This document shows positions 566 to 46,900 of a stretch of DNA of 64,000 nucleotides, piece after piece (positions within the stretch are counted from its first letter, which is position 1; every line of letters begins with the position of its first letter). The position numbers were made by a program, and so were the translations under genes. The notes beneath the pieces are model-generated. The model ran no database searches, had not been told where the DNA came from, and saw only the letters and a program-made list of their open reading frames with translations. Source of the stretch: an uncultured Clostridia bacterium (GTDB lineage: Bacteria > Bacillota > Clostridia > Christensenellales > UBA1242). Where the stretch lies: the NCBI GenBank assembly GCA_947629505.1, contig CANRDW010000001.1, positions 7,750-71,749 on the forward strand, given 5' to 3'.

Positions 566-1498
566 TTAGCAGTAAAGAATGCCAAAAATCAAATAATAAA
601 GTGCGTTTTCAATCTGCATTTGTCCATTTTTGATGTAAAAATCAACATCGTTGAGCATTTCATATATGTTTTTAAGTTGAATTTTTGTGAAATTTTTGGA
701 AAGTTCACGCGCTTTTACAATGGCAAATTCTTTCACAGAAAGCATATTTGACAGTTCCTTGTCCGAAAGCCCCGAAACTGCCACAAAGAAAAGCCTTCTG
801 AAATGATTTAAAACAAGTGTGAAAGTTTTTGTGTCTTTTTCCATCAAATTCAAAAGTGTAACCGCCCTGTCAGCATCTCTTTTTGAAAGCGCATCTGTAA
901 GTTCATACACTGTGAATTCATCCTCTTTGCAGACCAGATTTTTTATGTCTTTTTCATTTATCTCAACATCGTCACAGGCGCAGAGTTTGTCAAGTTCGTT
1001 TTTTATCAGCGAATAATAATTGCAGCACGCCTCAATCAAATCTTGGCACGCTCCGTCTGTGATGGTTTTTCCTTTGCTTTTGAGTTCTGCACGAATAATC
1101 TCTGAAAGTGAGTGGTCATCCATGCGCTTTGCACTCACTTTTTCTGCAATCAAAAAGTCAAATTTATTGAAAAAGTCAAAAATCACAAGACAGGTGCTTA
1201 AAACAGGCGTTTTTAAGTAATCTCGCAGTTTTTTCTTGAAATTTTCATTGATTTTGGCAATATTTTTAAGCAAAACCACTTTTTTCTCACTTCCCATAGG
1301 CAGCGTTTCACACGAATTTATCACCGCATCCGCATCAAAACTATCTTCATCAAAAACGATGAAGTTGAAATCTTCCATTTGCAAATTTGACGCCTTTTTG
1401 ATAAGTTCAAGCGCCTTGTCATACAAGAGAATGTCCTCCCCTTGAATGATGTAGCACGGCTCTATTTTTTTAGATAATCTCGCTTTTAAAGTTTTCAA
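566..1498 (-). CDS. holA: DNA polymerase III subunit delta
   Basis: The N-terminus ...KKIEPCYIIQGEDILLYDKALELIKK... is typical of HolA, and comEC-holA synteny is conserved in Bacillota. I place the start at TTG 1498-1496: GGAGG lies 8 nt upstream and TTGA overlaps the comEC stop. The track start at 1615 would overlap comEC by 120 nt. Confidence 0.8.
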   Translation of the reverse strand: MKTLKARLSKKIEPCYIIQGEDILLYDKALELIKKASNLQMEDFNFIVFDEDSFDADAVINSCETLPMGSEKKVVLLKNIAKINENFKKKLRDYLKTPVLSTCLVIFDFFNKFDFLIAEKVSAKRMDDHSLSEIIRAELKSKGKTITDGACQDLIEACCNYYSLIKNELDKLCACDDVEINEKDIKNLVCKEDEFTVYELTDALSKRDADRAVTLLNLMEKDTKTFTLVLNHFRRLFFVAVSGLSDKELSNMLSVKEFAIVKARELSKNFTKIQLKNIYEMLNDVDFYIKNGQMQIENALYYLIFGILYC

Positions 1499-8466: not shown

Positions 8467-8494
8467 TTGAATTATTTTTTCTTTGTGCTAAAAT
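8467..8494 (+). promoter_or_regulatory. promoter of the 2,848-aa surface protein gene
   Basis: TTGAAT (8467-8472), 16-nt spacer, TGcTAAAAT (hexamer 8489-8494). AAAGGAG RBS at 8507-8513. Confidence 0.5.
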
Positions 8495-8520
8495 ATATTC
8501 ATAATAAAGGAGTGAAATCT

Positions 8521-11500: not shown

Positions 11501-14500
11501 ATTATTATCTCGACAATAATCACAAAACTCCAACCCGTGCAAGCGGCTATGAAAATAATTACAGCATGAGAATTGACGTTCCTCAGTATAGTGATGGCGA
11601 AGATGAAAGTTATGAAAACATCTATCAAGTTTTAATTCGTGATGAATCCAACACAGTCTTGGATTTCAATGTGCAATACAATTCTTTGGAAGATCTGAAA
11701 ACAAACTCTGTGCAATACACAAACCACTACAGTGCAAGACAACTCATCAGTGTAAGTTTTGATGCAAGCAAACTTGACATAACCTTTAAAAACTCTGCTG
11801 GCGAGGATGAAACGCTCATCACAAGCACTATCACTCAACGTGTGGATGCAGATGACGTGGAAAATCAAACAAAACTTATCACCTATCTATCCCCGTCTAA
11901 ATTGGAAGAACCGCTCAACATTTACTTTACTCCAACGCCAGAAATCGCAAATATGGATATAAACATTCAAGTTCAAAGCATTGAAATAGATTATTATGAA
12001 TTTGAAATCAAATCAGAAAAACACGAAGATAAAACACCAAACCCAGACAAAAACTCAGATGAAACAGAAAGAACATCTTACTATCTTGGCTTCAGCAAAA
12101 ATCCTGCAAAATCAACCCCATATGTTTTTGATGGAAACAATGCAAATTCAAATTTACTGCCAATTTCATTGAATGTAGATGAAACAGGCTGGACAAGACC
12201 GGGCAAATATGTCATCACAAGAACATATAAACTTGACGAAAACTATGGCTTCAATCCACGAGATTACTATCAACGTGAATATGTTTTGATTGTAGATCGA
12301 AACGATGTAATTTCCTTGCCAGAAGGTGCGCCAGACAACAGTTCGCACTATGAAAGCATGGTTGGAGGCGATATCTTCGTTGCAATGTTTGACAATGGCA
12401 ATACTGCAAACTTTGTTGTAACTTTCCCAAACAGTGAAGAGGACAACAACGATGGACAAACCCCTTACAACAACGCAACCCTTGATTCAGAGTTGTTAAC
12501 AGCGCTTACAACAAACATGTTGCCTGTAAAAGTGTATGTTCCAACATTTAAATACACAAAATATGCTGAAAAAATTTTGCAAGACAAGACGGCTGAGGAT
12601 AAATATAATTCACAAGGGCACTACAACTTTGAAGTTGAAAACTCTGAAATGAATTACAACTATCAATTCAACGAAGAAAACTTCCCTATTCAAGAATTTG
12701 CGTTATATGCAACAATAGAAAAGATTGAGAGAGATTCGCAAGGCATAATCGTTGGAAGAACTTTGATTGCAACAACTCAAAATCCAATCACCACAAGAAA
12801 CGGAAACATTGTGCTAAACGCAGGTGCATCCACAAACGGATTTTTGAATTTCACTCCAACAACTCAAGGGCAAACAAGTCATTACATAACACAAGCCTCT
12901 GAAATAATCGCAGCAGGAGAATATATTGTCAGCATTATTCAGGGCAGATACAAATCTTCCTTTGGCGAAAATGATTTTGAGAAAACAAGCATGTTTTTGT
13001 TTGAGATTCTGCCTGCGATTCCGGATTTCACAGTGCGTGGAAGCACAACGCTCACCCCTGTTTCTGATGGAACAATTCAAACATATTACACAAACGAATC
13101 TGACCTTAAAATCTCTTGGGCAGCGAGTCCAAACAAATATATAGTTGACATCGATATTGACAGCACTATAATAAGATTTGGAAGCAAAACCCTCAAAGCA
13201 TCAGAAATTTGGGGAAATGAGAATGATCCAAGATATCCAAAAATCAACAACGGCGAATATATCGCTTCGCTTAACCTAACAGAGATTGGCGCTTACACAC
13301 ACGGCCAAATTATTGAAATAACCATGTATTTGAAAAACTCAGCCGCTTCCGGAACGCTCCCTGTCACAAAGAGAATTGAAGTTGATTTGTCCGCACCAAG
13401 TGACAACGTTGAAAGACTTGTGGACAATTCAATTCCTCGCAATCTCATTTCAAGAGATAGTTTGCGAACATATTTGAAAGCCAACGGAATTGACACCGCT
13501 GCAAACTTAAGAGAAACAAGTTACAACATAAGCAGTGTTAAGACAGATGTTTTGAAATATTATTCCTACACCGTTGAAAAGAACTACATCGAAACATTGC
13601 GCGCTGGAAAAACAAGAGATGTGTTTGAAGTTTATATAAGGGCATTTACAGATATTGATGGCACATCCTCAACAAAATACAACGACAACTTCCCACAATC
13701 TCAAGAAACAGATCCAAAGAGTTTCTTAAATTCAAAGGATTTATTCACAGAAATCTCTTCTTTTGAAGGCTTTAAGGCGGACACCTATTATGAAATTGTG
13801 GAAACAGACCGCGCCAACAACCTTGCAATTTACACAATCTACATTGTGGACAAAGCAAAAGCCACAACAGACAACACTTCACTTATCTCTTACTCTTACA
13901 GGCCAACAAATGCGGATGCCGATGAAACCGCCTCATACACCGCAAGCGATTACAATGCAGTTGTAAATCACACCGGCGCAATACACAACATCTATTCACT
14001 TTTAGGCTTTAAACTCAAAAATATCAACTATTTTGGAGATGCATGGTCATTTATAGAACTTCGCACAGTTGACGGCTCAACAAGATATCTCATGAAAAGC
14101 CCACATATTGCCTCAAATATGCTGCTGGAATTTGGACTCAACGGAATCCAGTCAAATCCTGTAAGTTTGGAAAGTTTGATAGATGGGCAAACACCATCCG
14201 ACTTGAAAAATTCACTCGCTGTATATGACAGACTCAATCAAACAAATTCCATTTTCTACATCAATGTTCGAACAGTTCCATTCAACTCAGAATTGTCCCT
14301 CACCCCAACGAGTGAATACATCAGATTCAACAACGCCCCAACCGATGCGGAAATAAATGACACTGAAAGGGCAAAAGTGTATGTGACAAGCATGAGAATA
14401 ACTGTCAACAACATCGAACTTTACAATCAGACAAACAAACTTGGCTTTGCTTCAAATTGGACAAGCGATGCAAACAGAAATTTCATCATAAGCCGCAATG

Positions 14501-17067
14501 CAAACAACTTGACTTTCACACTCAACCCTTCCTTGACCTTTGCCATCAATGCAAAAATTGAATACAACTACACAGACAACTATGGCAGAAGTTACAAGAA
14601 AATCCATTTGTTCCGTGAAACAGGCATCACTCAGCCGATAACCTCTGAAAATGACTTGTATGCTTACACCGGCGACTATGGCAGACTGATCTACATCACG
14701 CAAGACGGGTTCCAATATCACTACAACACAGCAAAACACACAGTTAAAGCCTACAATTGTATAGACGGAAAACAAGCAGGCGAAGTAGATCCAAAAATAA
14801 TGTCAAATGTCCCATCGTCTGACCTTGCCGGCGTCAACACAATCACTTTCACTCATTACGCAATAGGAAAACCTTACAACGAAAGTTACATGCTGGAAGT
14901 TTGTGACCTGACAAACGGAGAAGTTGAAGAAGTTGTTTACTTCACACTTTATAATGAACTTCCAACGGCAAACAAATATGCCGATTCAAACGCACAGGGA
15001 CAATTTAAAATTCAAGACGCTCACGGCACGAATGTCACTGAAAAAATTGTTGATCCAAATCAAAGCGACTCTGCGAGATATTTCTCAGAAGTGCGCGTTC
15101 TGTTTAGAGAATATGAAAGCGCATCCAATTTGGTTAGATTTCCTGTTAGATATTCAATCAGAACTGACTCGACTGCTTGGCGTCAACTCACCTCAGGTGA
15201 AACAATCCGTGCAGAGGGAGATGTCACAGAAAAATTCTATTTGAAAATTTGGTATGATGAAACTTATATTTCAAACGAGTTTGGCAACACTGCATATGTG
15301 TTTGGAAGAGTGCCACAGTCACAAATATATGAATTCAACCTTTCCGCACTCACATCAACCTATTGGGTTGAAAGAACGGACACAGGCGAAATCTTACAAC
15401 CAAGCGGCACAGATTTCATAGCAAGCAACGGCAGACGTTACACAACACACTACATTGTAAACATCAGCGCAACAGACAGAGATTTAATTCAAGTTCATGT
15501 AAATGAAGAACAACTTTTGACAGTAACATGGGATGACGTGAATGACGTTGAAACTGCCGACGACCCTAATATTAAAAGTCAACTTTGCACAATTTCAAAT
15601 AAAGAACAGGTCGCTGGCACTAATATCCCCGCATTTGAAATAACGATTGCATTTTCCTATGTGCCAACCAGTTCTCAGATTGTAAAAGATTTCTACACTT
15701 ACAACATGAACGGCAGTTTGGATAGCACTGTAAACCTTATGGACTCGACGACCGCTTCATTTAGTTTGGTTGTCCAAGACGCATCAACTAATGACGATTT
15801 CGACCATATTGAAATTCAGTGGACAAAATACTATGGAATACAACAAAATACAATCAACATCAGTATTGTCAAAGACGGCATCACACTTCACCCAACAATC
15901 TACACTCGCAAAATCAGAGATGGTGAAAATTACAAAGAATACAACTACACTCGCCTGACATATTCTGGAAAATATTTAATCAAATTCCAAGATGTTGCAG
16001 GCAATGTTCAACAATTCTTGAGAAACAGCCCATCTCAGACCGAAACATTCACACTTGTGTTCTTGAAAGATGTTCCATTCACTGTGACTTACACGGACGT
16101 TGAAACTGGCACAAGAAAGGCATCCTTGCCAATCAAACAGGCTGTTTACAACGGCACAGTCACCTTGAATATCGACCCTGTCACCCGCACAGAATTTTAC
16201 TTGCAGACGGGATTGCCGGAAATCACAGTTTACAGAAATGGCGTTGACATTTCCGACGAGTTTGAAAGAAGAAGCACATCCTTTGCATTTACATCGACAG
16301 GCTATTATGAAGTTGAATTCTCAGCAACAAGCAGTGAAGCGGGCAAAGGAAAAATCCGTTCTGAGAAATATCAATTTATGATAATCAATCCAAACGAAAA
16401 CAAGATTTCATATGTTTACAACAAATATTCAAACTATTATGTAGAAAAAGTTGTAAGAAAAGGTGTTGACATAACTGAACAACTTGTAAATTCAATGGAT
16501 ATTGAAAAAGTCACTATCAACAAAAAGCAATATTTGACATACTTGCCACTTTCATATTTGGATGAAAAGACCGGCGAAGGTGATTACATTATTACAATCA
16601 ATTCAAACAACGCTTCAATTGGAAACACCTCAATGCCAGCAACATTCACCTTTAAAGTTTCCATCAATTCAGGGAACGCACCTATAAGAATTTCACTTGC
16701 AGAAGGCAAAAACACAACCGACCCAATCAACATCAGTTTCAATCAAACAAACGTGTTTGCAGCACTTGGTGAATGTCAATTCCAGATTCTAAGTCAAACA
16801 GGAAACAACACATTCAGAACACTTATGACAAAGCAAATCACCGCCCAAACAACAACAGATTACACCGTCACAATTGGTGATTCTTACACAGGAACATTTT
16901 ACATTCAATTTGAGTCGCCAAGTGGCTATCTGCTGTTTAGTTACAAGGTTTCAAGAAGCGCTCCATTAAATGCAGCATCAATCATTGCAATAGTCATCTC
17001 AGCAGTTGTGCTTGTGGTTGCAATTATCCTTATAATTAAACTTAGAAAGAGAATCTCTGTTAAGTAA
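8521..17067 (+). CDS. giant cell-surface protein, 2,848 aa (signal peptide, beta-rich repeat ectodomain, C-terminal TM anchor)
   Basis: I moved the start to ATG 8521; the track start at 8467 is the TTG of the -35. Signal peptide ...ALSLLATGIFVLNQKPRIANA/TVEA. C-terminal IIAIVISAVVLVVAIILII plus KLRKRISVK. Ig-like D-x-AGN motifs (VYDDAGNHSY, ETDRANNLAIY, FQDVAGNVQQF). No catalytic motif seen. Confidence 0.85.
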   Translation: MERKKSLFKNFMFVFVALSLLATGIFVLNQKPRIANATVEATEVDNSKVPTDFFVKKEFEGENVKENDNLAQADIFAYYNQGTTKNSFQISFLTNGSSETRDGIYEFVLFPDSVNTPNLFKFYTNIQVSLSVNGEDMDVSKKTFAVSSGQNFTNFNSTVSGIDNPSSQPQSFEINFVGENIGQETVTETDNKISIMKDGKVVEGLYSVHVEMVVVTCNNAKTDKSEDSLSFSEEPLSFTYNFYVVERANYIANNRPNVNASTNNGFDSVVPVSDLTNTYSYYLYSNYSNEDNKIPYIEYDLNRFDVSVTKVDGTTQRIQYETESQDFETSGNVVKVRSNKETKKVKIFFTDVGDYLVRMNAIQVVELDSGTVKYALDGITNALHPLMTYIYGYQLKYTSYDSTPVDGVYPKEDLKWYDINFETATFKDSADITGAFLKSNATYSQNSSEDSTNGSNTFTMEKIIKYLNEGGPTIDGEVTPPPKPVQTNQNPFEFTGNANLDKEHSFMLTTNTNLGGTYLGELDIDGLGEQALYYSQFTGQVEGSEGVYVYLLAYTYENLKDSPNSSAAKRMMYQVFYFEITPALQDIDVAVGAQGGESISKFVNQNVFVTDTTKDERYKKDITVQIYAVDYERSASQTVFVEGFGGANGIRLQDKSDGNNTLELSANAHYTIRLYVTSELKSLTHPVSTNFNEKTGFLRELSFTIDKNPVENIIGRNIVQADASASRYTEVSVIENFATNQNFALAWDKKKSGAETHAFYKIFPIVSANIYSSVSETVDSFINQSLTSGGGVSTLPINYMLDLENTDSSWIPYSSNTKDQTIISSQQRLSGQGLYLIDVYDDAGNHSYKMFLLDYTTPLFALYRNGAFELTSQTMYVDSSVTLYWGSNKSIYIKGIDSELYQNTTPENVDAAELTSPLYATIMQGEKPVDKDGAKHIYELLYYTLFSEKDQLGASKTQYMQYIQYLNLNLTEADNVAVESYSSMYLTIPIVDTYYYLDNNHKTPTRASGYENNYSMRIDVPQYSDGEDESYENIYQVLIRDESNTVLDFNVQYNSLEDLKTNSVQYTNHYSARQLISVSFDASKLDITFKNSAGEDETLITSTITQRVDADDVENQTKLITYLSPSKLEEPLNIYFTPTPEIANMDINIQVQSIEIDYYEFEIKSEKHEDKTPNPDKNSDETERTSYYLGFSKNPAKSTPYVFDGNNANSNLLPISLNVDETGWTRPGKYVITRTYKLDENYGFNPRDYYQREYVLIVDRNDVISLPEGAPDNSSHYESMVGGDIFVAMFDNGNTANFVVTFPNSEEDNNDGQTPYNNATLDSELLTALTTNMLPVKVYVPTFKYTKYAEKILQDKTAEDKYNSQGHYNFEVENSEMNYNYQFNEENFPIQEFALYATIEKIERDSQGIIVGRTLIATTQNPITTRNGNIVLNAGASTNGFLNFTPTTQGQTSHYITQASEIIAAGEYIVSIIQGRYKSSFGENDFEKTSMFLFEILPAIPDFTVRGSTTLTPVSDGTIQTYYTNESDLKISWAASPNKYIVDIDIDSTIIRFGSKTLKASEIWGNENDPRYPKINNGEYIASLNLTEIGAYTHGQIIEITMYLKNSAASGTLPVTKRIEVDLSAPSDNVERLVDNSIPRNLISRDSLRTYLKANGIDTAANLRETSYNISSVKTDVLKYYSYTVEKNYIETLRAGKTRDVFEVYIRAFTDIDGTSSTKYNDNFPQSQETDPKSFLNSKDLFTEISSFEGFKADTYYEIVETDRANNLAIYTIYIVDKAKATTDNTSLISYSYRPTNADADETASYTASDYNAVVNHTGAIHNIYSLLGFKLKNINYFGDAWSFIELRTVDGSTRYLMKSPHIASNMLLEFGLNGIQSNPVSLESLIDGQTPSDLKNSLAVYDRLNQTNSIFYINVRTVPFNSELSLTPTSEYIRFNNAPTDAEINDTERAKVYVTSMRITVNNIELYNQTNKLGFASNWTSDANRNFIISRNANNLTFTLNPSLTFAINAKIEYNYTDNYGRSYKKIHLFRETGITQPITSENDLYAYTGDYGRLIYITQDGFQYHYNTAKHTVKAYNCIDGKQAGEVDPKIMSNVPSSDLAGVNTITFTHYAIGKPYNESYMLEVCDLTNGEVEEVVYFTLYNELPTANKYADSNAQGQFKIQDAHGTNVTEKIVDPNQSDSARYFSEVRVLFREYESASNLVRFPVRYSIRTDSTAWRQLTSGETIRAEGDVTEKFYLKIWYDETYISNEFGNTAYVFGRVPQSQIYEFNLSALTSTYWVERTDTGEILQPSGTDFIASNGRRYTTHYIVNISATDRDLIQVHVNEEQLLTVTWDDVNDVETADDPNIKSQLCTISNKEQVAGTNIPAFEITIAFSYVPTSSQIVKDFYTYNMNGSLDSTVNLMDSTTASFSLVVQDASTNDDFDHIEIQWTKYYGIQQNTINISIVKDGITLHPTIYTRKIRDGENYKEYNYTRLTYSGKYLIKFQDVAGNVQQFLRNSPSQTETFTLVFLKDVPFTVTYTDVETGTRKASLPIKQAVYNGTVTLNIDPVTRTEFYLQTGLPEITVYRNGVDISDEFERRSTSFAFTSTGYYEVEFSATSSEAGKGKIRSEKYQFMIINPNENKISYVYNKYSNYYVEKVVRKGVDITEQLVNSMDIEKVTINKKQYLTYLPLSYLDEKTGEGDYIITINSNNASIGNTSMPATFTFKVSINSGNAPIRISLAEGKNTTDPINISFNQTNVFAALGECQFQILSQTGNNTFRTLMTKQITAQTTTDYTVTIGDSYTGTFYIQFESPSGYLLFSYKVSRSAPLNAASIIAIVISAVVLVVAIILIIKLRKRISVK

Positions 17068-17119: not shown

Positions 17120-20100
17120 TTATTTCTTTTTCAACTCTTTGTCAAGTTTAACTTTAGAAACAATGAAGTAGATGATTACACCTGCAAGCACAACAACTGA
17201 GATAACAATCAAAATTGTTCCAACAACTTGATATGTCATAACAGGATCTTGTGCTCTTGCTGTGAATGTGACTGAAACAGAGTTGTTTGTGCCTTTGTTT
17301 CCAACATCGTCATAGGCTTCCAAAATAATTCTGTATGTGCCAACTTCTGTGATGTTGTAAACACGATAATCGCCATCTTCATCATATTCAAGTTCGTTGT
17401 TTGAAGAGTCAACAACTTTAATTGTGATTTCCTTGTTTGTCATTTCATAGTTGTCAGTAACATCCAAGGCTTTTGTGTTGATTCTAAGTTGTTCACCAAG
17501 TGTGTAAGAACGGCTTTCTTTAACAAATCCACTCTTAACGATGATGACAGGGTTTTCGTTATCTCCGACTGTGATTGTTTTTGTCCAAGTATCTCTATTT
17601 CCGGCCATGTCTTCAACTTTGTATGTGATTTTGATTGTTCCGTTTGTTTTTGTTGGATCATCGCCAAATTTAGATTGATCAATAACTTTGTCAGTTCTTC
17701 CTGTCAATTGTTCTGTGAAACCTGCAACGTTGTTGCTGTTTTTAACAGGTGACCATTCAAAGTCGATTCCTGTGTTTTCGCTTTCCCAATTGATTTCTTC
17801 GTTGGCCTCAATTCCATAAACTGTGAAACCATGTTCTTCGTTTAATTTATTAGCAAACTGTTCTTTTGTCAAAGAATCGTCATAATCATGATGTGTGATG
17901 ACAGGTTTAACTGTGTCAACAACTTCGATTCTGTAAACATCGCTTTGACGAACATAGACTTTAAGTCCCTCAAAAATGTCTTCAGTTACACTATCAGATT
18001 TCGCAAAAGATGATACTTTGCCATCCTTATATGTTACAACTTTTCCATCTTCAAGTTTAAATACATAATAAGATTTAGTTTCTGTATCGTAATATTTAAG
18101 TTCGCCCTCATTTTCAGCATAGAAATAACCTGAAAGATCTGTGTTATCTTTTAATGTGAAGTAGTTTTTGTCTTCATATTTTCCGCCTTCAAATGTGCTT
18201 TCATTGAATGTGAACATTGTTGGCTTGTAAATGCGAATTTTAACTGTGTATTGAAGGTCATAGATGCCAACTTCTTTTGGCTCAAACAAGCCTTTAACAC
18301 CAAAGTTTGTTTCCCAGCCCATGTCTGATGCTGTTCCGTCTGGCTCAACGCCCATTACAACGTATGCTGCGCCTTTTGCATCGTCTTCATTCTTCTTAAA
18401 TTCTGTGTAAGTGATGCTGTTTGGGATTTGATAGTAAACTGTAGGTGTTGGAAGTTCAATTCTTGGATTGTCATTAAGTTGATATGTTCCACTTGTAAGG
18501 GATGCAGAAATTTGTGGTTGTTGAATCAAAATTCTTGGTTCAACTTTATACTCTTTGAAGTAAGTGATAACATTGTCTGCGCTGTCACGAGCTGTGATTG
18601 CAATCTTGTAAGTTCCGTCAGCAGAAGCAGTGAATTTTCCAGCATGGATTGTGTAAACACCAGAGCCATCATAGTTTGTCTGTCTGCTTGAATAAGAATC
18701 AGCAACATCGATTGCATATTCTTTGCTGTCTTTGTCAACACGAGTTGCTTTAACTTCATATGTCATATAGCCAACTGAATCATCTGCAACTTTAAGTGTA
18801 GGCAATACAATTTCAGCGCCTTGATAGATTGTTTCTTCTGTCATGTTGTTTTCAACTGACAAGAAAATTGGAGCACTTGAATCTTTTGTTGTGTAGATGT
18901 TTGTCTGCATTGCTGCCATTGTTGGATTTCCGGCATCATCATATGTGAATGCAACAATTTGCAATTTTTCAGCGCCCTCTGGAGCTTCTGAAAGTTTGAT
19001 TGAATAAGATGATACGCTTGTGTCTGTGAGTTCTTTATATCCATCAAATTTTTTGCTGTAATCTTTAACTGTTCCATCTGTAAGTTCATAGTCGTGATAT
19101 TCTTCATAAAGGTCTGCCAAGTTTGTGCCACTGTCTGCCACATATTTATCTCTTAAATCTTTATAAAGTTCGTCAAGGTCAACATAACCTTTTTCTTCGT
19201 TTGCGCCATCTTCAAATTCAATGAGGTTGCCCTTTCCATCAAGATATCTGTATAAAACTCTCTTATACATGTTGCTGTCGCTTGTATCTGTTGCTGATGG
19301 AGCATCAAATGTGATTGTTGCTTCTGGAAGATAAGAAGCGGCAAGTTGTGTTGAGAATTTAAGTGTTGGAGCAGCGCTGTCTGTGGTTGATGTGATATAG
19401 ATTGGTCTTGAAATATCTCTGTCATTTCCAGACTTGTCGATTGCCACATAGTGAACAAAGTATTGTCCAACGCCTTGTCCTGTTGTGAGTCCGTTGTCTG
19501 TGGTTGCGCCAAAGGTTTTGTCATAGTCAATGTATGCAAAGCCAAGTTTTGTGAGATCTTCTTCAGATTTTGCTTGAAGCCATGCTTTCAAATCTTCTGG
19601 TGTGAGTGTATCGCCTGTCTTAGCGCCTTCAAAGGTTGCTTCGCCAAACAAGTCGATTATGTTTTGAAGATTTCCATTGTCAATCACAACAAGATAGTTG
19701 TTTTCTTTAAGCCAACCGAATTTCTTTTCAACAGAGTCAAGTGTTGCTTCTGGATTTGCGGAATTATATTTGTCAACTGCTTTAGAAATCAAATAATTCT
19801 TGTCAAGCATTGCCTCCCATGCATCATCAAAAGTTTTTGCACTGTTTTCTCCAGAGAAATTGAAGATAAGGTTGTATGCATCATAGCCATCGATTGTGAA
19901 AAGGTCTGTAAGGCTTGTTGCAATTCTTCTGTTTAAAACAACTCCATTTTCTTGGTTGTTGTCGTCAATTGTTGAAACATTGTCGTCAATTCCGATGGCG
20001 TAAACAACAACTGCGTTTGGATTTGCGTTTGTTTTGAGTTTGTAGGTCGCATCTTCGTAAGTTGGTTTTTTGTCTGCGTCCACAACAGATGCATCATAGA

Positions 20101-21463
20101 TGACAGGTGTTGGGTTTGTTTCATCAACTATATTTGAAATTGCATATGTTCCGTCTGTGGATTCATTTTCATTGCCATAGATGTCTTTAATGTTGTAGTT
20201 GAATGTGTACCATCCATCTTGAAGTGGCTTGAATTTTGAAGGGTCTTTCAAATAGCCGTTTTCGTCAACAACATCTGCATAGATTTTAACACCATCAACT
20301 TCGATGTCTTTGATGTCTTCATATGCTCTGTTGCTGCTTGATGACATATATCTAACTTTAACTCTGTAATAAACATCAACTGCTTCGTTTGCAGGAGTTG
20401 TTGTTGAACTTGTAAGCCCTTTTGCTTCTGGAAGAGTGATTTCAACGCCTGTTTGTGCAGATGTTGGGAAATTTGAAACTTGAATTACAGGTTTTTTGTA
20501 GTTTTCATAATAACCCTTTCTTTCATCATTTTTTGCATAAACGTTGATTTCTTTTGTTGTGGATGTCACAAAGTTTCCATTGTCATAGAAAGCATATCTG
20601 ATTGTATATTTCCCAGATGCGGTGTTTTCAGAAGTGAAAACTGTTGATGCAATTTTGTATTGTGTTTTTGTTTCATCACCATCAACAGGTGTGATATCAA
20701 CATCTTCTGATTTGCTGTCAATGGCTGTGATTTGAAGCACATATCCACTGCTTTTTGCTGGTTTTGTCTTCTCAGTTGAAACTGTGATTTTTTTGCCGTT
20801 TTCTTCGTTGTAAACTTCGCCATCCTCACCTGTGATTTCAGGGATTGGAAGAAGAACATCATTTGGGTCACCAACGTTAAGGTCAATTATGCTTGGAATG
20901 AATGCTGGTGTGTTGTTTTTGAAATCGATTGTGGCATTTGAAAGTGTGCTTTCAATCTTGAATTCAAATTTGTTTTCATACTGTTTTGGTGTTCCAGATA
21001 AAACTGAAGTAACTTCTTGATATGTGTATGAATATGTGATCACATATGTTCCAACTTTTTCAACTTCCAAAACGCCATCTTGAAGTTTAACACCATCTGT
21101 GTTTTCGGCAGAGCCATATCCAACAGTCACACTTGTTGATACAATCTTAACTTTTGATTCATCGGTTGGATGTTCAAGTTCTGTGTCGTTAACATCTGCA
21201 GAGCCAATGGCAAGACTTGTGCTGCCGCCAATATATGCTGTTGGAATGGTGTATTGTTCACCCTTCTTGACAGAAGTAGTTTTGTTTGCGTCAGCAAGTT
21301 TTAAAGTAATGTAGTTGTAATCAACTTTTGTGCCTTCTGGGAGTGAAACTGCAGCAAGTGCCAAAAGTGCGTCATTTGGCATGCAAATAACTGCAAGCGC
21401 AAAAGCAACTGCAAACACCAATCCTCTTAAAAATATTGAATGATTTTTTCTTTTAAGTTTCAT
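17120..21463 (-). CDS. giant cell-surface protein, 1,447 aa (signal peptide, tandem Ig-like modules, C-terminal TM anchor)
   Basis: RBS TAGGAGA. Signal peptide MKLKRKNHSIFLRGLVFAVAFALAV.... At least six D-x-(A/S)GN ... P-x-I module ends (KDIYGNENES, AIDKSGNDRD, TYDDAGNPTM, ARDSADNVITY, VEDMAGNRDTW, AYDDVGNKGT), typical of HYR/bacterial Ig-like surface domains. C-terminal GTILIVISVVVLAGVIIYFIV plus SKVKLDKELKKK. Confidence 0.85.
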   Translation of the reverse strand: MKLKRKNHSIFLRGLVFAVAFALAVICMPNDALLALAAVSLPEGTKVDYNYITLKLADANKTTSVKKGEQYTIPTAYIGGSTSLAIGSADVNDTELEHPTDESKVKIVSTSVTVGYGSAENTDGVKLQDGVLEVEKVGTYVITYSYTYQEVTSVLSGTPKQYENKFEFKIESTLSNATIDFKNNTPAFIPSIIDLNVGDPNDVLLPIPEITGEDGEVYNEENGKKITVSTEKTKPAKSSGYVLQITAIDSKSEDVDITPVDGDETKTQYKIASTVFTSENTASGKYTIRYAFYDNGNFVTSTTKEINVYAKNDERKGYYENYKKPVIQVSNFPTSAQTGVEITLPEAKGLTSSTTTPANEAVDVYYRVKVRYMSSSSNRAYEDIKDIEVDGVKIYADVVDENGYLKDPSKFKPLQDGWYTFNYNIKDIYGNENESTDGTYAISNIVDETNPTPVIYDASVVDADKKPTYEDATYKLKTNANPNAVVVYAIGIDDNVSTIDDNNQENGVVLNRRIATSLTDLFTIDGYDAYNLIFNFSGENSAKTFDDAWEAMLDKNYLISKAVDKYNSANPEATLDSVEKKFGWLKENNYLVVIDNGNLQNIIDLFGEATFEGAKTGDTLTPEDLKAWLQAKSEEDLTKLGFAYIDYDKTFGATTDNGLTTGQGVGQYFVHYVAIDKSGNDRDISRPIYITSTTDSAAPTLKFSTQLAASYLPEATITFDAPSATDTSDSNMYKRVLYRYLDGKGNLIEFEDGANEEKGYVDLDELYKDLRDKYVADSGTNLADLYEEYHDYELTDGTVKDYSKKFDGYKELTDTSVSSYSIKLSEAPEGAEKLQIVAFTYDDAGNPTMAAMQTNIYTTKDSSAPIFLSVENNMTEETIYQGAEIVLPTLKVADDSVGYMTYEVKATRVDKDSKEYAIDVADSYSSRQTNYDGSGVYTIHAGKFTASADGTYKIAITARDSADNVITYFKEYKVEPRILIQQPQISASLTSGTYQLNDNPRIELPTPTVYYQIPNSITYTEFKKNEDDAKGAAYVVMGVEPDGTASDMGWETNFGVKGLFEPKEVGIYDLQYTVKIRIYKPTMFTFNESTFEGGKYEDKNYFTLKDNTDLSGYFYAENEGELKYYDTETKSYYVFKLEDGKVVTYKDGKVSSFAKSDSVTEDIFEGLKVYVRQSDVYRIEVVDTVKPVITHHDYDDSLTKEQFANKLNEEHGFTVYGIEANEEINWESENTGIDFEWSPVKNSNNVAGFTEQLTGRTDKVIDQSKFGDDPTKTNGTIKITYKVEDMAGNRDTWTKTITVGDNENPVIIVKSGFVKESRSYTLGEQLRINTKALDVTDNYEMTNKEITIKVVDSSNNELEYDEDGDYRVYNITEVGTYRIILEAYDDVGNKGTNNSVSVTFTARAQDPVMTYQVVGTILIVISVVVLAGVIIYFIVSKVKLDKELKKK

Positions 21464-26857: not shown

Positions 26858-27442
26858 TTAAATTTCTTGTCTGGACTTTAAGGCTTTTTCAAGTGTGATT
26901 TCGTCCGCAAACTCAATGTCACTGCCCATAGCAATGCCCTGCGCAAGACGGGTCACTTTCACACCCAGCGGCTTTAAAAGTTTTGCAATATACATTGCCG
27001 TGGCTTCGCCTTCCACATCTGGATTTGTTGCCATAATTACTTCTTGCACGCCATTTTTTTGCACGCGAGATAAAAGTTCTTTCACTTTTATATCATTTGG
27101 GCCTTTGTTTTCAAGCGGATTTATGCAGCCAAACAGCACATGATAAACTCCGTCAAAACTCTTCACTTTCTCCATGGACAAAATGTCTTTTGGTTCTTGC
27201 ACAACACAGATGATTTTTTGATTTCTTTTTTCGCAGATTGGGCAGATGTCCTTTGCGCTGTAATTTCCACATTCGCGGCAAAATTTAACTTTGTCTTTCG
27301 CTTCAATGATTGCTTTTGCAAAATTTTCCGCTTTTTCACGGCTGTTTTCAATTATATAAAAGGCATAGCGCTGGGCAGTTTTCTGCCCAACCCCTGGCAA
27401 ACTTTTGAAATATTCAACAAGTCTTTCAATCGGCTCTTCCAT
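26858..27442 (-). CDS. recR: recombination protein RecR
   Basis: LPGVGQKTAQRYAFYI (HhH), C4 zinc finger CRECGNYS...CPIC, Toprim region. dnaX-ybaB-recR synteny. Confidence 0.95.
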   Translation of the reverse strand: MEEPIERLVEYFKSLPGVGQKTAQRYAFYIIENSREKAENFAKAIIEAKDKVKFCRECGNYSAKDICPICEKRNQKIICVVQEPKDILSMEKVKSFDGVYHVLFGCINPLENKGPNDIKVKELLSRVQKNGVQEVIMATNPDVEGEATAMYIAKLLKPLGVKVTRLAQGIAMGSDIEFADEITLEKALKSRQEI

Positions 27443-27443
27443 C

Positions 27444-27761
27444 TCACATTCCTATATTTGGCAGTTTGGATGTTTCGTCCGCGGTTATCTTTGCCATGCA
27501 GTCGTTAAACGCACTGACAACCAAATCTTCAAGCATTTCAACATCGTCTGGGTCAACAACTTCCTTTTTTATTCTCACGGCCTTTACCGTTCTGTTTCCA
27601 AAGCAAGTCACTTCAACCATGCCGCCGCCAACAGAAGATGTGTATTCTGTTTCATCAATCTCCTGTCTTATTCTTTTCATATCCTCTTGCATTTTCTGTG
27701 CTTGGCGCATAAGTGCTTGCATATTTCCGCCGCCAAAGCCACCACCAAATCCGTATCCCAT
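27444..27761 (-). CDS. ybaB: YbaB/EbfC family nucleoid-associated protein
   Basis: 105 aa. NMQALMRQAQKMQEDMKRIRQEI...GGGMVEVTCFGN. Confidence 0.9.
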   Translation of the reverse strand: MGYGFGGGFGGGNMQALMRQAQKMQEDMKRIRQEIDETEYTSSVGGGMVEVTCFGNRTVKAVRIKKEVVDPDDVEMLEDLVVSAFNDCMAKITADETSKLPNIGM

Positions 27762-27773
27762 ATTACAACTCCT

Positions 27774-28118
27774 TTATTCTATTTCAACTTTATTGCCAAA
27801 AAAGTCTTTAGCTTTTTTTATGTCTTTTTCAATCTTTTGTTCTTTGCTTTCAAATTTCACAACTTCAAACTTCAAATCCAAGCCCTGCCAACGAATGGCC
27901 GCTTCGATGTCCTTTCTGCCGTTTTCCAAAACGTCAATTAAAAAGTCATCTGAAGAGCGAATCACAAGTCTGCCGTCAATAAGTTGTGCATTTGTAATAT
28001 CTCCGCACGCCACATGAAGCGCCACTTTTTTATGCTCTTTAAGATAAAGCACAATCTTTCCCCAAACATTGCCGGCGGACAATTTTGTTGTGTCAACCTC
28101 AATTTTCAGTTTTTTTTT
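27774..28118 (-). CDS. dnaX: dnaX C-terminal (tau-specific) segment, encoded in the -1 frame relative to dnaX
   Basis: An open frame of 112 codons begins inside the A9 tract. It has no internal Met, no RBS and no independent start. It ends 12 nt before ybaB, where the end of dnaX is expected. Confidence 0.6.
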   Translation of the reverse strand, partial: KKKLKIEVDTTKLSAGNVWGKIVLYLKEHKKVALHVACGDITNAQLIDGRLVIRSSDDFLIDVLENGRKDIEAAIRWQGLDLKFEVVKFESKEQKIEKDIKKAKDFFGNKVEIE

Positions 28119-29209
28119 GCGTCCAAGCCAAGCATGGCAGTAAGGCAAGTTGTCTCAAGTAGTAATCTAACTGAAAGTGTGTATCTAAGTTCGCTTTCAG
28201 CGCTTGAAAACACTTGCATATATCTGATAAGGTCTTTTTCTTCAAACTTCTCCGATTGTGACTTATACATTTGAAAGACATCGTCTGTCAAGTTTAAAAT
28301 CTCTTCTGCGTTTTTACAAGACTTGCAAACAAGCAAATTTCTTGAATGTTTTGAAAGGTCCTTTGCAAAAACAGCAAGATTTTTGCCCTCTTTTTCAATC
28401 TCGTCAATAAGAGCAAGCACTCCGCCAACATCTTTTTCGTTTATCTTGTCAAAAAAGTTGATGATAAGGTCGTGGTCGGTTGTGCCCAAAACTTGTAAAG
28501 TCTTTTCTTTTGTAATGTTGCCCTGGCAATATGACGCAATGCTGTCAGCAATTGAAAGCGTGTCTCTCACACTGCCCTCGCCCGCACTTGCAATGATTTT
28601 CAAACTCTCTTCATCATATGAAATCTTTTCTTTGTCAAAGATTTTTGCAAGATGTTTTGAAAGTTCGTCCACACTTACAAGCCTGAAATCAAATCTCACG
28701 CAGCGCGAAAGGATTGTCTGTGGCAGTTTGTGAACTTCGGTTGTTGCAAGAATGAAAATGACATGTGCAGGTGGCTCTTCCAACGTTTTTAAAAGTGCGT
28801 TGAATGCCGAATCGGTGAGCATATGCACTTCGTCCACAATATAAACTTTATATTTTGCCCCAACAGGCGCAAAACGAACTTTTTCACGAATGTTTCTTAT
28901 GTCATCAACTTTGTTGTTGGATGCTGCATCCATTTCAATGATATTGATGTCATTTTCTTGCTCTAAGCGTTTGCAGTTTTCACATTCGCCGCACGCCGAG
29001 CCATGCACAGGGTTAAGGCAGTTCACAGCGCGTGCAAAAATCTTTGCAACACTTGTCTTGCCCGTTCCGCGTGTGCCTGTGAAAAGATATGCGTGTCCAA
29101 CTTGCCCATTCATGATTTGATTTTGCAGTGTTTTTGTGATGTGTTCCTGCCCAATCACTTCGTCAAAGGTTTTTGGACGATATTTTCTGTAAAGTGCGAT
29201 ATGTTCCAT
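28106..29209 (-). CDS. dnaX: DNA polymerase III subunit gamma/tau, zero-frame product (367 aa)
   Basis: HAYLFTGTRGTGKTS (Walker A), zinc module CGECENC, VYIVDEVHML, SRC motif LSRCVRFDF. The zero frame stops (AAC TGA) right after the A9 tract. Confidence 0.9.
   Translation of the reverse strand: MEHIALYRKYRPKTFDEVIGQEHITKTLQNQIMNGQVGHAYLFTGTRGTGKTSVAKIFARAVNCLNPVHGSACGECENCKRLEQENDINIIEMDAASNNKVDDIRNIREKVRFAPVGAKYKVYIVDEVHMLTDSAFNALLKTLEEPPAHVIFILATTEVHKLPQTILSRCVRFDFRLVSVDELSKHLAKIFDKEKISYDEESLKIIASAGEGSVRDTLSIADSIASYCQGNITKEKTLQVLGTTDHDLIINFFDKINEKDVGGVLALIDEIEKEGKNLAVFAKDLSKHSRNLLVCKSCKNAEEILNLTDDVFQMYKSQSEKFEEKDLIRYMQVFSSAESELRYTLSVRLLLETTCLTAMLGLDAKKN
28110..28118 (-). repeat. A9 homopolymer (T9 on the given strand) at the dnaX frame junction
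   Basis: Read directly: ...GAC GCA AAA AAA AAC TGA. Confidence 0.95.
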
Positions 29210-36361: not shown

Positions 36362-36390
36362 TTGACAATTACCCCCCCCCGTGTTATGAT
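36362..36390 (+). promoter_or_regulatory. consensus promoter of the WG-like repeat gene with a C9 tract in the spacer
   Basis: TTGACA (36362-36367), 17-nt spacer attaCCCCCCCCCgtgt, TGtTATGAT (hexamer 36385-36390). AAGGGGGA RBS. ATG 36414. Confidence 0.55.
36372..36380 (+). repeat. C9 homopolymer
   Basis: Read directly. It is the only long C/G homopolymer I saw in the window. Confidence 0.95.
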
Positions 36391-36413: not shown

Positions 36414-37631
36414 ATGGAAGAAGATATTTTTGAGCCTGTAAAACTTGCTGACGGCAAATGGACCTTTAAAAACACAAATACAGGCAAACTTTGCGAACAA
36501 AGATTTGATAAGGTTGAATATGTTAATGAAGGCTTTGCCGCCGTTAAAATCAAAGGCAAATGGACATTTTTCAAACCTTCAACTGGAGAACTTTGTAAAC
36601 AAGAATTTGATGCTGTTAGAGATATTCATGGTGGATTTGCAGCAGTTAGAATCGGCAAAAAATGGACATTTTTCAAGCCTTCAACTGGAGAACTTTGTAA
36701 AGAAAAATTTTATGATATTAATGTTAAAACAAATGGCCTTCCAGTGGTTAAAATCGGCAAAAAATGGGCTTTTTACAATCCTTCAACTGGAGAACTTTGT
36801 AAAGAAAAATTTGATGAGTTTTATGAGTTTATAGAGGCTCCTAATAACTATGCATTAGTTAGAATCGGCAAAAAATGGACTTTTTGCAATCAACATACTG
36901 GAATACTTTGTGAACAAAAATTTGATGAGTTTGGAGGTACTTCTGGTCAATTTGCAGCAGTTAGAATCGGCAAAAAATGGACTTATTATAAAGCATCAAC
37001 TGAGAAACTTTGTGAACAAGAATTTGATGAGGTTAGAAATTTTGATGGTCAATTTGCAGCTGTTAGAATCGGCAAAAAATGGACTTATTACAATCCAACA
37101 TCGAATCGATGTTGTAAAGAATACTTTGATGATGCTCTTGATGTGAATGACAGTTGGTTTGTTCCTGTTAGAATAGGGAACAAATGGACATACTTTGATC
37201 TTCGCAATGACGTTGTTTTGCCAACATCTATAAAAATGACAAAAAACGACAATGGTAGTTATGTTGATTTATACTTTTGGTTAAGAAGACATCCGGAAGA
37301 TTTTGAACAACTCCCAACTGAATTATTCGCTGAAGACAAAAAAGAAGTTGAAAAATGTTTAAAAGAAATTGCCAATGGAATTAAACGTGATTTATGCTCA
37401 GAAAAAGGTTCTTTAGAAGAAGTTGAAGAATACACAAAACAAGTTTATGATATGATTTCAAATAAAATTGAAAAAGAGAAACAAAATATTGCAATCAAAG
37501 AACAACAAATAGCTGCCTATCAGGCAAAGCGCAAGGCTGAAAAAGCCGAACATGAAGCCGAACGTTTCAAAAAAGCTGAAATCGTTGACAAAGCAGCAAA
37601 AATTATCAAAGACTTGGGAGGAAAGTTGTGA
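36414..37631 (+). CDS. WG/KWG-like beta-propeller repeat protein with C-terminal coiled-coil
   Basis: Eight copies of a ~33-aa unit: (I)GKKWTF(F/Y)xPSTGELCxxxFDxVxxxxGxFAAVR. The C-terminal ~110 aa are K/E-rich and helical. Confidence 0.8.
   Translation: MEEDIFEPVKLADGKWTFKNTNTGKLCEQRFDKVEYVNEGFAAVKIKGKWTFFKPSTGELCKQEFDAVRDIHGGFAAVRIGKKWTFFKPSTGELCKEKFYDINVKTNGLPVVKIGKKWAFYNPSTGELCKEKFDEFYEFIEAPNNYALVRIGKKWTFCNQHTGILCEQKFDEFGGTSGQFAAVRIGKKWTYYKASTEKLCEQEFDEVRNFDGQFAAVRIGKKWTYYNPTSNRCCKEYFDDALDVNDSWFVPVRIGNKWTYFDLRNDVVLPTSIKMTKNDNGSYVDLYFWLRRHPEDFEQLPTELFAEDKKEVEKCLKEIANGIKRDLCSEKGSLEEVEEYTKQVYDMISNKIEKEKQNIAIKEQQIAAYQAKRKAEKAEHEAERFKKAEIVDKAAKIIKDLGGKL
36540..37200 (+). repeat. tandem ~99-105-bp coding repeats inside the WG-like gene
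   Basis: Near-identical blocks such as gttagaatcggcaaaaaatggac recur at about 36648, 36858, 36958 and 37058 (a variant gttaaaatcggcaaaaaatgggc at about 36751), and ccttcaactggagaactttgtaaa recurs three times. Confidence 0.85.
37522..37545 (+). repeat. left copy of a 24-bp perfect inverted repeat
   Basis: aggcaaagcgcaaggctgaaaaag, encoding (Q)AKRKAEK in the WG-like gene. Confidence 0.95.
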
Positions 37632-43930: not shown

Positions 43931-46900
43931 TTATCTCTTTGAGAGTTCTTCTCTGCGCTTTTTCTTGTTGTGATTTACAACCATCAAAATCACAAGCAGT
44001 AAAACAATTCCAACCACGATGCCCACGATGAGATATACATACCAAAGAGATGTTTCACTTAAAATGATGCGTGCGTTTGCCGTCAAATTTCCAAACAAGC
44101 CGTCATTGTAAATTGGTGAATAGTCCGTCCTTGAAAGTTGAATGTTTTTGATTGTGTGATTGTTGAAGTTGAATTGTCCACCAAAACTGTTTTCAGCAGT
44201 TCCAATCGGCGTCCAGAATTTGTCTGCAAGGTCGAGGTCTGCCGTCAGCACATAACAAGCATCTTTATATCTTGCGCCACTTTCGTTGACTGCGCCAGAA
44301 TTTACAAGTTGCATCATTCGAGCAAGTTGTGAAAGATTTGAGATTTGATATGGATTTTTGATTGTGCCCTCGCCATCAAATATGACATCCAAAAGCACAT
44401 CGTCTTCCCACATAATTCTTGAATATTCAACAGTGAGTGAAATTGTGCCAATAATTGGCTCAACTTTGCTGTCACGATATTCTTTGCTGATCTCTATTCT
44501 TCCATTGTGATAAATCTCATCGATATCACTATAGACAAGTCCATAATTTTCAATAATAATGTTTGAAATCTTGTATTTTTGATTGAGTTGTGCCAAAATC
44601 ACAAGGTCTGCATCTCTGTCAACAGTCAAAACGCCAATCATTCCACCATTTACAGTTGTAAGTCTGCCCGCTGAAAGAACGCTGTTCAGGTCAATTGCGT
44701 TGTCAATAATCTGGTCATCTGCAAACTTTTCAGTGATGTAAACTGACAATATCTCATCGCGGAATGTCGGCAAAATTTGCAAAGTATCGTCACCTGCAAT
44801 ATTTCCAGAGAGCATCAAAGTGAAATAATATCTTTGATTTTCAAAGTGGTCTAAGGTCATGTTTGCTGGATTTTCCCAAACGACTGCAAAGCCACGCTCC
44901 ACATTCAAAACAAACTCAACTTTGTCACCTACATGCGCCCTGAATGTTGTCACATCTTTCACAAATTCACCAACATTGTTGTAATGTCCAAGTGAATAAG
45001 AAGTTTTAACATCATTCTTTGGCGTCACGTTGATTTGAATGATCTGCCCAAATCTTGCCTGATATTCGCTGAAATCCAAATCCACAGGCAATCCTTCCAA
45101 AACCATGATGAAAATAACATGTGTTTGGATTTGTTGTGTGATTGTCGCTCTGCCGCTTGTGTAACCTGTGCTCATGTTTGTCCAACTGATAAACTGATAA
45201 CCCTCAACCGCTTCGGCAGTCAGTGTGAATTGTTTTGACGTGTCAACATAAAATTTATTCAACAAAACAAGTGCTTGCGAGTTGCTGTCTTGCTGAGTGA
45301 TGCTTGCATTTGCTTCACCGCCGATAATTCTGATGTCAACTTGTGCAAAGTAAACAATTTGCACTTCGCATTCAACAAAGTTGTCAAGTTGATTGGTTGA
45401 CCATGGGGTGCGTTCGCTGTAAGAATATGCTGGGGCAAACCAATCGCCACCTGCAGGACGCTGATTGATTACAAAACGATAGAATGCAAAACCTGCAATT
45501 TCTGGTGCGTTGAAATAGATGTTTGTTCCAAAAGAAACTTCCATGTAAAGTGGCTGAGATGAATAATACCAAGAATTATACACATCCACGCCCGTGACGA
45601 TATCTTGTGCTGTGATGTTTGTTTGAATGTCAGGGATGATTGAGAATCTTATTCTTGTTTTAAGATAGCTCATGTAAAGATAAAGTGAAATTTCAACTTC
45701 TCCCGTCACTTCGTTGAAATGAGCGTTTGCACTTCTTTCATAAACTTTTGTCTGTTGATTGAAAGAATAGCCACTTTCTTGCCATGTCAAAAGCAAATTG
45801 CCGTCTGAGTCAAAATATCTCACTCCTGCACCTTTTGGCTGTGTGAAATAGCCCTCAAAGTTGAAGCCACTGCGTCTGACAATAATGTTGAGTTTTCCGC
45901 CAACAACAGAAAGTCCGTCCTCTTCAAGTTGGATGTCGCTGAGTTTTGTAAGGTCGATTATTCCTCCAAATTCCACATTTTTGATGGTTGCAAGCAAAGT
46001 TCCGCCGTCACTTTCCACTGTGCTTCCATCACGCAATTTAACTGTGTATGTTGAAGAATTTAACACAATTCTGATTTGTTGTGCGTGCAAGAATTTTGAC
46101 ACGTTGAAAGTCAACATTCCTGTGAAGCCAGATTCAAGAATTTGTGCTTCTGTAAATCTTGTGTAAGTTGCGCCCTCTTCAACAATGCCATTTTCATCTA
46201 CAATAACCAAATTTGAAGCATCATTTACATAATATCCAAGTTTAATGTAAGCTCGAACGACAAATCTGCTGTCTGTGAGTGCATAGACATTGACACGAGG
46301 CTCTCCATTGCCTGAGGTTGAAATCATGGAGTCATCCAAATCACTTGCGCCGGTCACTTCAAAGATTCCGCCCTCAACAACATTGCCTTTATCCTCAAAG
46401 GAGAGTTCAACCAAGTTCACGATAGGCTTAAACACAACATATAAATTTATTCTCTTGTCAATCGCCCCAACAAAGTTTGAAATTTGATAGATGGATGCAT
46501 CATTATTTGACTGTGTGATCATCACGCCATTTTCTGAGCAAACAATTCTGTCAAAAACATAGCCATCGCGCTGAACGACAACACGAATATAAACAAAATC
46601 GCCTGTGTAAGCAACAATTGAGAAATTGTGATAGTCAATCGCACCGTTGTTTTGATAGTGTGTTCGTGAGCCCTCGATGTAGCCATTTGCTTTAACTTCT
46701 TCGCCATTTTCACCAACAAGTTGTGCCATGCCAACGGTGTCATTGTTTTCACGGTTTGAATTTATGCTTATTTGAGTTTGAACATCAAATGTCACGCTGT
46801 AAGCAGAAACAACAAAGTAAATCTTAAACACGCCCTCACCGATGTTTTGAGTTGTGATGTTCACTTCAACAGTTCTTTCATTTCTTGCATCTTGGCTTAT

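Follow-up and report, generated by a model that had tools for sequence, protein, structure and literature searches.

How does an uncultured Clostridia bacterium produce the full-length tau subunit of its clamp loader from a dnaX gene whose coding sequence is divided between two reading frames? This question is raised by a stretch of 64,000 nucleotides (nt) of DNA (positions 7,750 to 71,749 of contig CANRDW010000001.1, assembly GCA_947629505.1; the whole stretch is referred to as the window), in which the minus-strand dnaX gene is split at a run of nine adenines (A9). Some form of programmed recoding almost certainly joins the two frames, and programmed transcriptional slippage is probably the process by which tau is made from the split gene.

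The zero-frame open reading frame (ORF) of dnaX occupies positions 28106..29209 on the minus strand, stop codon included, and encodes a gamma-like product of 367 amino acids (aa) with the AAA+ domains I-III and the C-terminus LGLDAKKN. On the minus strand its 3' end reads ...CTT GGC TTG GAC GCA AAA AAA AAC TGA in the zero frame. The A9 slippage tract is located at 28110..28118 (minus strand; T9 on the plus strand) and is parsed as gcA AAA AAA AAc in the zero frame and as AAA AAA AAA in the tau frame. It is directly followed by a C at 28109 and, one codon past the tract, by the TGA at 28106..28108, which terminates the gamma-like product, while a further TGA in the third frame (28099..28101, minus strand; ACT GAA AAT TGA) would end mRNAs carrying eight or eleven adenines (A8 or A11). 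The -1 frame reads GGA CGC AAA AAA AAA CTG AAA ATT GAG... and meets no stop for 111 codons past the tract. This tau-specific C-terminal extension (27774..28109, minus strand) comprises 111 codons devoid of Met and a TAA (27776-27774), which sits 12 nt before the next gene, ybaB. Fusion of the zero and -1 frames gives a protein of 478 aa with the junction ...LGLDAKKKLKIEVD..., and two -1 heptamers, A_AAA_AAA and A_AAA_AAC, lie in zero-frame phase within the tract. An initial annotation, made from the letters of the window, had described dnaX as split at A9 with tau requiring a -1 shift, and its coordinates, lengths and junction are all correct. In its domain content, the N-terminal part does not depart from an ordinary DnaX (domains I-III): the Pfam models DNA_pol3_delta2, DNAX_ATPase_lid and DNA_pol3_gamma3 span residues 20-357 of the 367-aa protein, which also matches NCBIfam models PRK05563 (model positions 2-354 of 567) and TIGR02397, dnaX_nterm (2-353 of 355).

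A split of this kind may trivially result from a homopolymer error of sequencing or assembly, the true gene being in frame with ten adenines (A10). Homopolymers are error-prone and in-frame A10 alleles do exist, so that the arrangement has to be judged from relatives. DNA was taken from 16 species-representative metagenome-assembled genomes (MAGs), named 'Candidatus Caccovivens' or uncultured Clostridia, and from 39 further loci retrieved when metagenomes were scanned with a C-terminal-domain alignment; the frame analysis covered all 54 related loci holding both parts. Exactly A9, then C, then a stop, with the extension in the -1 frame, was found in 15 of the 16 species representatives, and the flanks of the tract in these 15 MAGs are full of synonymous changes. 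The same A9 and C with the -1 layout were present in all metagenome loci holding both parts (35/35). Altogether, the C-terminal domain (C-domain) lies in the -1 frame behind A9 in 50 of the 54 related loci and in frame behind A10 in the other four, a recurrence far beyond chance, and the layout is kept down to protein identities of 45% in the N part and 37% in the C part. At the protein level, a search with the fused sequence retrieved dozens of independent clusters, 77-98% identical and 364-389 aa long, with the same end point. More than 100 protein clusters contain a DnaX of 364-389 aa, and full-length DnaX of 478-485 aa appeared in only nine clusters of the fused-protein search.

Beyond this core, five remoter Clostridia loci with a GC content of 27-36%, among them two NCBI 'Clostridia bacterium' MAGs, show the same -1 layout: each holds a 366-aa dnaX product ending ...KKN*, A9 or A10, and then CTAA, followed by a linker before the -1-frame domain that is longer (40-90 residues) than that of the window gene (~15). 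One remote relative features a second A9, in the tau frame, about 60 nt downstream of the first and within the tau linker region (L067:1563-1571).

In view of this comparison, which the initial annotation had asked for, the split of dnaX at A9 is genuine and conserved across dozens of independent assemblies. The homopolymer error retained there as a leading alternative is refuted by the recurrence of the same A9 in independent assemblies that differ in study, pipeline and species, and the chance that it accounts for the window is negligible. In addition, NCBI, ENA and Logan all list an identical 124-aa orphan ORF of the extension (P0121; window 27774-28148, minus strand), and the window holds intact ORFs of 6080 and 2866 aa, which implies that the assembly is not riddled with indels.

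Tract length is nevertheless not identical in every relative. Readable in-frame relatives with A10 comprise L001, L017, L018/L019, L059, L061 and L062, whereas in the in-frame relative L060 (L060:1706-1716) the tract is A11 and continues with TTG (CAA AAA AAA AAA TTG), this being the sole tract without a following C. Three A10 assemblies have near-identical A9 counterparts, namely L001/L032 (98.9% nt identity), L059/L046 (97.5%) and L062/L012 (99.3%). Since A10 calls stem from low-coverage contigs (7.7x and 8.9x), either tract length varies within species or contigs of such coverage (7.7-8.9x) are occasionally mis-assembled. The expectation of the initial annotation that A10 reads would expose an assembly error is too simple, since in-frame A10 alleles occur in relatives 97.5-99.3% identical to A9 assemblies.

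The pairs just named, which differ only in A9 versus A10, also suggest phase variation at the DNA level, in which A9 would be the OFF state and tau would be made only in cells mutated to A10 by replication slippage. As the sole source of tau, such a switch is extremely unlikely: A9 is the consensus in 50 of the 54 loci, including each of the 35 two-part loci of the unbiased metagenome scan, and the A10 calls, coming from contigs of 7.7x and 8.9x, may be assembly errors. Moreover, the full-length form is described as essential in a preprint (bioRxiv 10.1101/2022.11.10.516041), so that A9 cells would still need recoding.

In split relatives the -1 frame is open for 110-119 codons, with the exception of L041, whose C-domain ORF halts after 77 codons (...VRWQGL*) on a low-coverage contig of 2.7 kb and may reflect a second lesion or an error. 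The ratio of nonsynonymous to synonymous substitution rates (dN/dS) of the extension has a pairwise median of 0.21 among A9-only loci, compared with 0.10 for the N part, and amounts to 0.04 at a dS of 0.34 in the comparison with the closest relative. These values indicate that the extension is under purifying selection. By sequence it could not be assigned to any curated family of tau C-termini, as searches of Pfam, NCBIfam and PDB yielded no informative match. AlphaFold2, supplied with a 34-sequence alignment and a 114-aa query, predicted a KH-type globular core (27849..28088, minus strand), in which residues 11-90 are confident (block-mean predicted local distance difference test scores of 84-96) and the secondary structure elements are ordered alpha-alpha-beta-beta-alpha-alpha-beta. 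The best Foldseek matches in the PDB were to DnaA domain I (4tps, 2e0g, 2jmp; probability 0.91-0.98), followed by DciA (8a3v), and tau domain V of Escherichia coli (2aya, 5fku_E) was matched weakly; DnaA domain I, DciA and tau domain V share the KH type II fold (Marsin et al. 2021, PMC8216460). Because the frame is open in relatives, dN/dS is low and a KH-type fold is confidently predicted, the extension is evidently translated. Within DnaX it forms the C-terminal end, separated from domain III by a linker of ~15 residues past residue 367, and both this position and the predicted fold class make the extension a candidate equivalent of tau domain V. The C-domain would then presumably bind the replicative polymerase, PolC or DnaE.

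In public records the extension is rarely joined to DnaX. Searches of 50%-identity cluster representatives and a profile search for the C-domain family returned nearly exclusively short orphan ORFs of 56-211 aa, several of which begin with ...KKKL..., and in more than 100 clusters the extension stands alone, as a 'hypothetical protein' of 83-211 aa whose starts are arbitrary and which belongs to no Pfam family. Such records are deposited in NCBI, ENA, JGI and Logan and constitute a systematic mis-annotation across the clade. They could also be taken at face value, in that the split is real but its pieces remain unjoined: the 367-aa DnaX would be the sole form, and the extension would either be translated separately, by reinitiation at CTG, ATT, TTG or a nearby ATG, or be a decaying remnant. 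The 83-211-aa proteins annotated by gene callers agree with separate translation, as do an ATG two codons past the tract in L041, L047, L050 and L054 and the CTGA at the frame border, which resembles an overlapping stop-start signal. The initial annotation had stated that no independent start is possible, which goes too far, given that TTG, GTG and ATT codons exist and gene callers place orphan ORFs of 83-125 aa in this region, but it stands insofar as neither a start codon nor a Shine-Dalgarno (SD) sequence is conserved. The individual candidates for an independent start, namely the TTG at 28148, internal TTG, GTG and ATT codons and a GAGG 14 nt upstream of a TTG, were rejected because none of them is conserved; the TTG at 28148 corresponds to CTG or ATG in relatives, and the CTG following the tract to CTA or CGA in others. 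A remnant, in turn, would not hold dN/dS at 0.04-0.2 and an open frame down to 37% identity, and an untethered domain could not connect the polymerase to the clamp loader. Neither version explains the invariant A9, and an unjoined split is very improbable.

The codon preceding the tract is GCA, GTA, TCA or TTA (CAA or GAA in the remote group), with a final base that is always A, even though GTA accounts for just 7% of the Val codons in the window. All three Lys codons of the tract are AAA (3/3), compared with 79% of Lys codons in the window's 29 other ORFs (18,919 codons). At the 18 further Lys-Lys-Lys sites in the window, AAAAAAAAA is expected 8.8 times but never used (binomial P ~6e-6); AAA AAG AAA is the commonest encoding there, and in this one 64-kb window the codon choices at sites of two or three consecutive Lys residues break up A runs. 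The dnaX A9 is, moreover, the sole A/T run of at least 9 nt within the 64 kb. Taken together, the absence of all-AAA Lys triplets and of any other run of this length suggests that the genome avoids long A runs in genes and yet keeps the dnaX tract; coding-region avoidance of 9A runs is a signature tied to slippage-prone RNA polymerase and functional slippage sites (Baranov et al. 2005, PMC1088944). Selection thus acts on all nine A's, more than the protein sequence or a shift site of 7 nt would call for.

The surroundings of the tract are similarly constrained. The C at 28109 has its counterpart in all 49 distinct split sequences, among which it is invariant, and in all six distinct in-frame A10 alleles. 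The Leu codon after the tract is CTG or CTA, which make up 8% and 1% of Leu codons, and never TTG (28%), and this choice creates AAC TGA or AAC TAA; lineages with Arg (CGA) at this position still retain the C. As AAT TGA would yield the same stop, neither the stop codon nor the protein sequence accounts for the invariant C. In the zero frame, a stop follows within three codons of the tract in all 47 distinct loci, and in 42 of these it comes as the next codon; the background probability of a stop within one codon is 0.10. In the third frame, the median distance to a stop is 3 codons across loci, compared with a background median of 7; this stop is conserved in the core clade, where both non-tau frames are closed within 1-3 codons, and looser in deeper branches. 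In P0010, P0042 and P0084, TGG replaces the TGA after the tract, and the zero-frame product of 373 or 389 aa acquires an out-of-frame tail of 6-22 residues; the immediate stop is hence usual but not obligatory.

Such a site could also be read by the ribosome, that is by programmed -1 frameshifting on A_AAA_AAA or A_AAA_AAC of the templated A9 mRNA, possibly helped by the adjacent stop. Canonical in-phase heptamers are present in every split locus, the required direction is -1 in all of them, and the stop lies directly past the heptamer in 42 of 47 loci. The invariant C, furthermore, builds A_AAA_AAC, the site of IS1 that works without a known stimulator (PMC4066793), and some reversed dnaX genes, i.e., those in which tau rather than the short form depends on recoding, have been treated as frameshift candidates (Atkins et al. 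2016, PMC5009743). Conserved ribosomal stimulators, be it an SD-like element or a 3' structure, are, however, absent at the tract, and the E. coli cassette needs both. The 22 nt before the tract pair with the anti-SD sequence at -3.0 kcal/mol, compared with a gene background of -2.7 (41st percentile), and over 47 loci the median percentile of this upstream pairing is 0.32, with strong pairing in 4 of the 47. Downstream, the 70-nt fold is no better than that of shuffled sequences (z averages -0.66 over the loci and is -0.9 for the window), RNAalifold predicted 0 pairs for 23 diverse loci, and the Rfam dnaX frameshift element has no match at the locus. The lack of a strong downstream hairpin reported in the initial annotation is therefore borne out alike by per-locus folding, the fold of the window sequence and RNAalifold. 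A CAAAC/GTTTG hairpin ~35 nt downstream was rejected as a candidate, as it is small, arises from N-V-W codons and is too far away. The sole hit to any frameshift element, a sub-threshold match to Rfam IS1222_FSE at 27959-28023 (minus strand), ~90 nt downstream, scored 19 bits against a gathering threshold of 45 (E 0.3) and was treated as chance.

Further observations speak against a purely ribosomal event. The three A's outside A_AAA_AAC are still invariant, in part by way of the rare GTA, and the heptamer alone does not require them; the TGG-for-TGA variants keep the tract, so that the stop is not essential; and A9 is the length at which slippage of bacterial RNA polymerase is efficient (PMC1088944). 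Ribosomal frameshifting as the source of tau is accordingly the principal rival but rather unlikely, and it could also operate together with transcriptional slippage.

According to the mechanism considered probable here, programmed transcriptional slippage, the change of frame would happen at transcription: RNA polymerase would slip on the T9 template and add one non-templated A to a fraction of the transcripts, converting A9 to A10. A10 mRNAs, translated normally, would give rise to the 478-aa tau, whereas unslipped A9 mRNAs would yield the 367-aa gamma-like protein, and A8 or A11 mRNAs would terminate within three codons. In this manner one gene would supply both clamp-loader subunits, the short form by default and the long form by slippage. 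The mechanism is favoured because all nine A's, and not just a heptamer, are selected, because A9 sits at the known threshold length for slippage, because ribosomal stimulators are lacking, because A9 and A10 alleles interchange, and because the design resembles that of Thermus dnaX, with stops near in the other frames. It had been one of the leading alternatives of the initial annotation and emerges as the best-supported one, given the selection on nine A's and the lack of a conserved hairpin or SD sequence. Sequence features by which slippage sites are recognised are likewise found, as the homopolymer is ~9 nt or longer, its full length is conserved and, in the one window, such runs are otherwise avoided.

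Several points weigh against transcriptional slippage. The tract holds the in-phase -1 heptamers A_AAA_AAA and A_AAA_AAC, the latter of which is a proven shift site in IS1 without an established stimulator (PMC4066793), and a strong SD-like GGAGG does occur upstream in L016, L034, L035 and L048. Slippage theory as such offers no reason for the invariant C, the third-frame stop is 4-10 codons away in deeper branches, and in AT-rich organisms RNA polymerase may slip less readily (Baranov et al. 2005, PMC1088944). A wider reading would combine a gamma-like default product and a slippage-derived tau with heritable A9/A10 switching in the DNA and a C that couples slippage yield to the cytidine triphosphate (CTP) pool or growth state. 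If this combination, which is speculative and unlikely, were true, switching between A9 and A10 would flip the default subunit and thereby lead to a phase-variable replisome stoichiometry, and, through the effect of the C on slippage yield, the proportion of tau to gamma would follow the CTP pool or growth state.

The remainder of the window provides the context of the locus. Downstream of dnaX, ybaB (27444..27761, minus strand) and recR (26858..27442, minus strand) follow in the conserved order dnaX-ybaB-recR, and related loci show the same dnaX neighbours. At the start of the window lie holA, which encodes the delta subunit of the same clamp loader (566-1615, minus strand), and comEC (1495-3624, minus strand); the two ORFs overlap by 120 nt, most likely as an artefact of extension to the first start codon. 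The giant intact ORFs are located at 43931-62173 (minus strand; 6080 aa), 8467-17067 (plus strand; 2866 aa) and 17120-21463 (minus strand; 1447 aa). The last of these was considered as PolC and rejected, having no Pfam match and a sub-cutoff match to a Ca2+-stabilised adhesin repeat. A tract of nine cytosines (C9) at 36372-36380 (plus strand) is situated in the 17-nt spacer between TTGACA (36362-36367) and TATGAT (36385-36390), just upstream of the ribosome-binding site and ATG of an ORF (36414-37631) whose product carries repeats of the WG and choline-binding type; by its sequence this region has the appearance of a typical phase-variable promoter for a surface protein.

Compared with known systems, the gene is closest in layout to the reversed two-ORF dnaX genes whose tau needs recoding, which were already described by Antonov et al. 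(2013, NAR 41:6514, PMC3711429) and restated by Atkins et al. (2016, PMC5009743), contrary to the assumption in the initial annotation that known precedents shift solely to the short form. Antonov et al. reported 17 such genes in 12 genera, with poly-A tracts in 12 of the 17 (nine A10 and one each of A9, A8 and A7); the named examples are from Chlorobi, Flavobacterium, Cytophaga, Capnocytophaga and Coraliomargarita, in the phyla Chlorobi, Bacteroidetes and Verrucomicrobia, and slippage was put forward for those with A10 and regarded as arguable where the tract is shorter (PMC3711429). In both the published and the present genes, a poly-A tract marks the end of domains I-III, with a stop close by in the zero frame, the tau part is in the -1 frame, the two parts are not annotated as one gene, and transcriptional realignment is proposed. 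The sequence characteristics of this type are thus found here, as an ORF ends at an A tract, the -1 tau region has no conserved start, and the layout is conserved along with purifying selection. The published tracts, however, are mostly A10 followed by G, whereas the present ones are A9 (A10 in remoter members) always followed by C, in uncultured gut and rumen Clostridia, with a stop that is usually the next codon and a single tau domain of ~110 aa.

What is new is therefore the broad radiation of uncultured Clostridia, the strict motif of A9, C and stop, and the very short single-domain tau extension. A search of open-access full text found no paper describing a reversed dnaX in Firmicutes, of which the model organism Bacillus subtilis is said to make only full-length DnaX (review, PMC13220808), while both forms appear to be made in the present Bacillota clade, the short one by default. 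The reversed design would hence extend to a third major bacterial branch and add an independent case for the short gamma-like form being itself selected. For databases, hundreds of public MAG records that list a 'gamma/tau' protein of 364-389 aa and an orphan 'hypothetical protein' would really represent one recoded gene, whose C-terminal domain is currently a family without a name. In addition, the clade offers a clean natural alignment of a slippage site, in which A9 is followed by an invariant C and an immediate stop and stimulators are lacking, and its near-identical A9/A10 genomes are well suited to studying how product ratios depend on tract length.

With the E. coli dnaX -1 cassette, which comprises A_AAA_AAG, an upstream SD sequence and a downstream stem-loop, the window gene shares the gene itself, the boundary after domain III and an A-rich in-phase heptamer. 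It differs in that no SD sequence or stem-loop is conserved and no Rfam match was found at the locus, in that the shift gives the long product, and in that the heptamer ends with C instead of G. In mxiE of Shigella flexneri, as cited in PMC1088944, one non-templated nucleotide at a 9-nt homopolymer (T9/A9) fuses two overlapping ORFs into a longer functional protein, as proposed here, though mxiE is a virulence regulator of a single genus and not a clade-conserved, universally essential replication gene. The dnaX gene of Thermus thermophilus, known for transcriptional slippage at A9 (Larsen et al. 2000, as summarised in PMC1088944 and PMC5009743), is alike, according to these summaries, in making both subunits from one gene and in having A9 at the gamma/tau boundary, stops near in both other frames and no required ribosomal stimulators. 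The two genes are, by the same accounts, reversed with respect to their products: in Thermus the templated mRNA encodes tau and the slipped one gamma, whereas here the templated mRNA would encode the gamma-like form and the mRNA with one additional A would encode tau, the in-frame A10 alleles of the clade thus being the exact Thermus-like counterpart.

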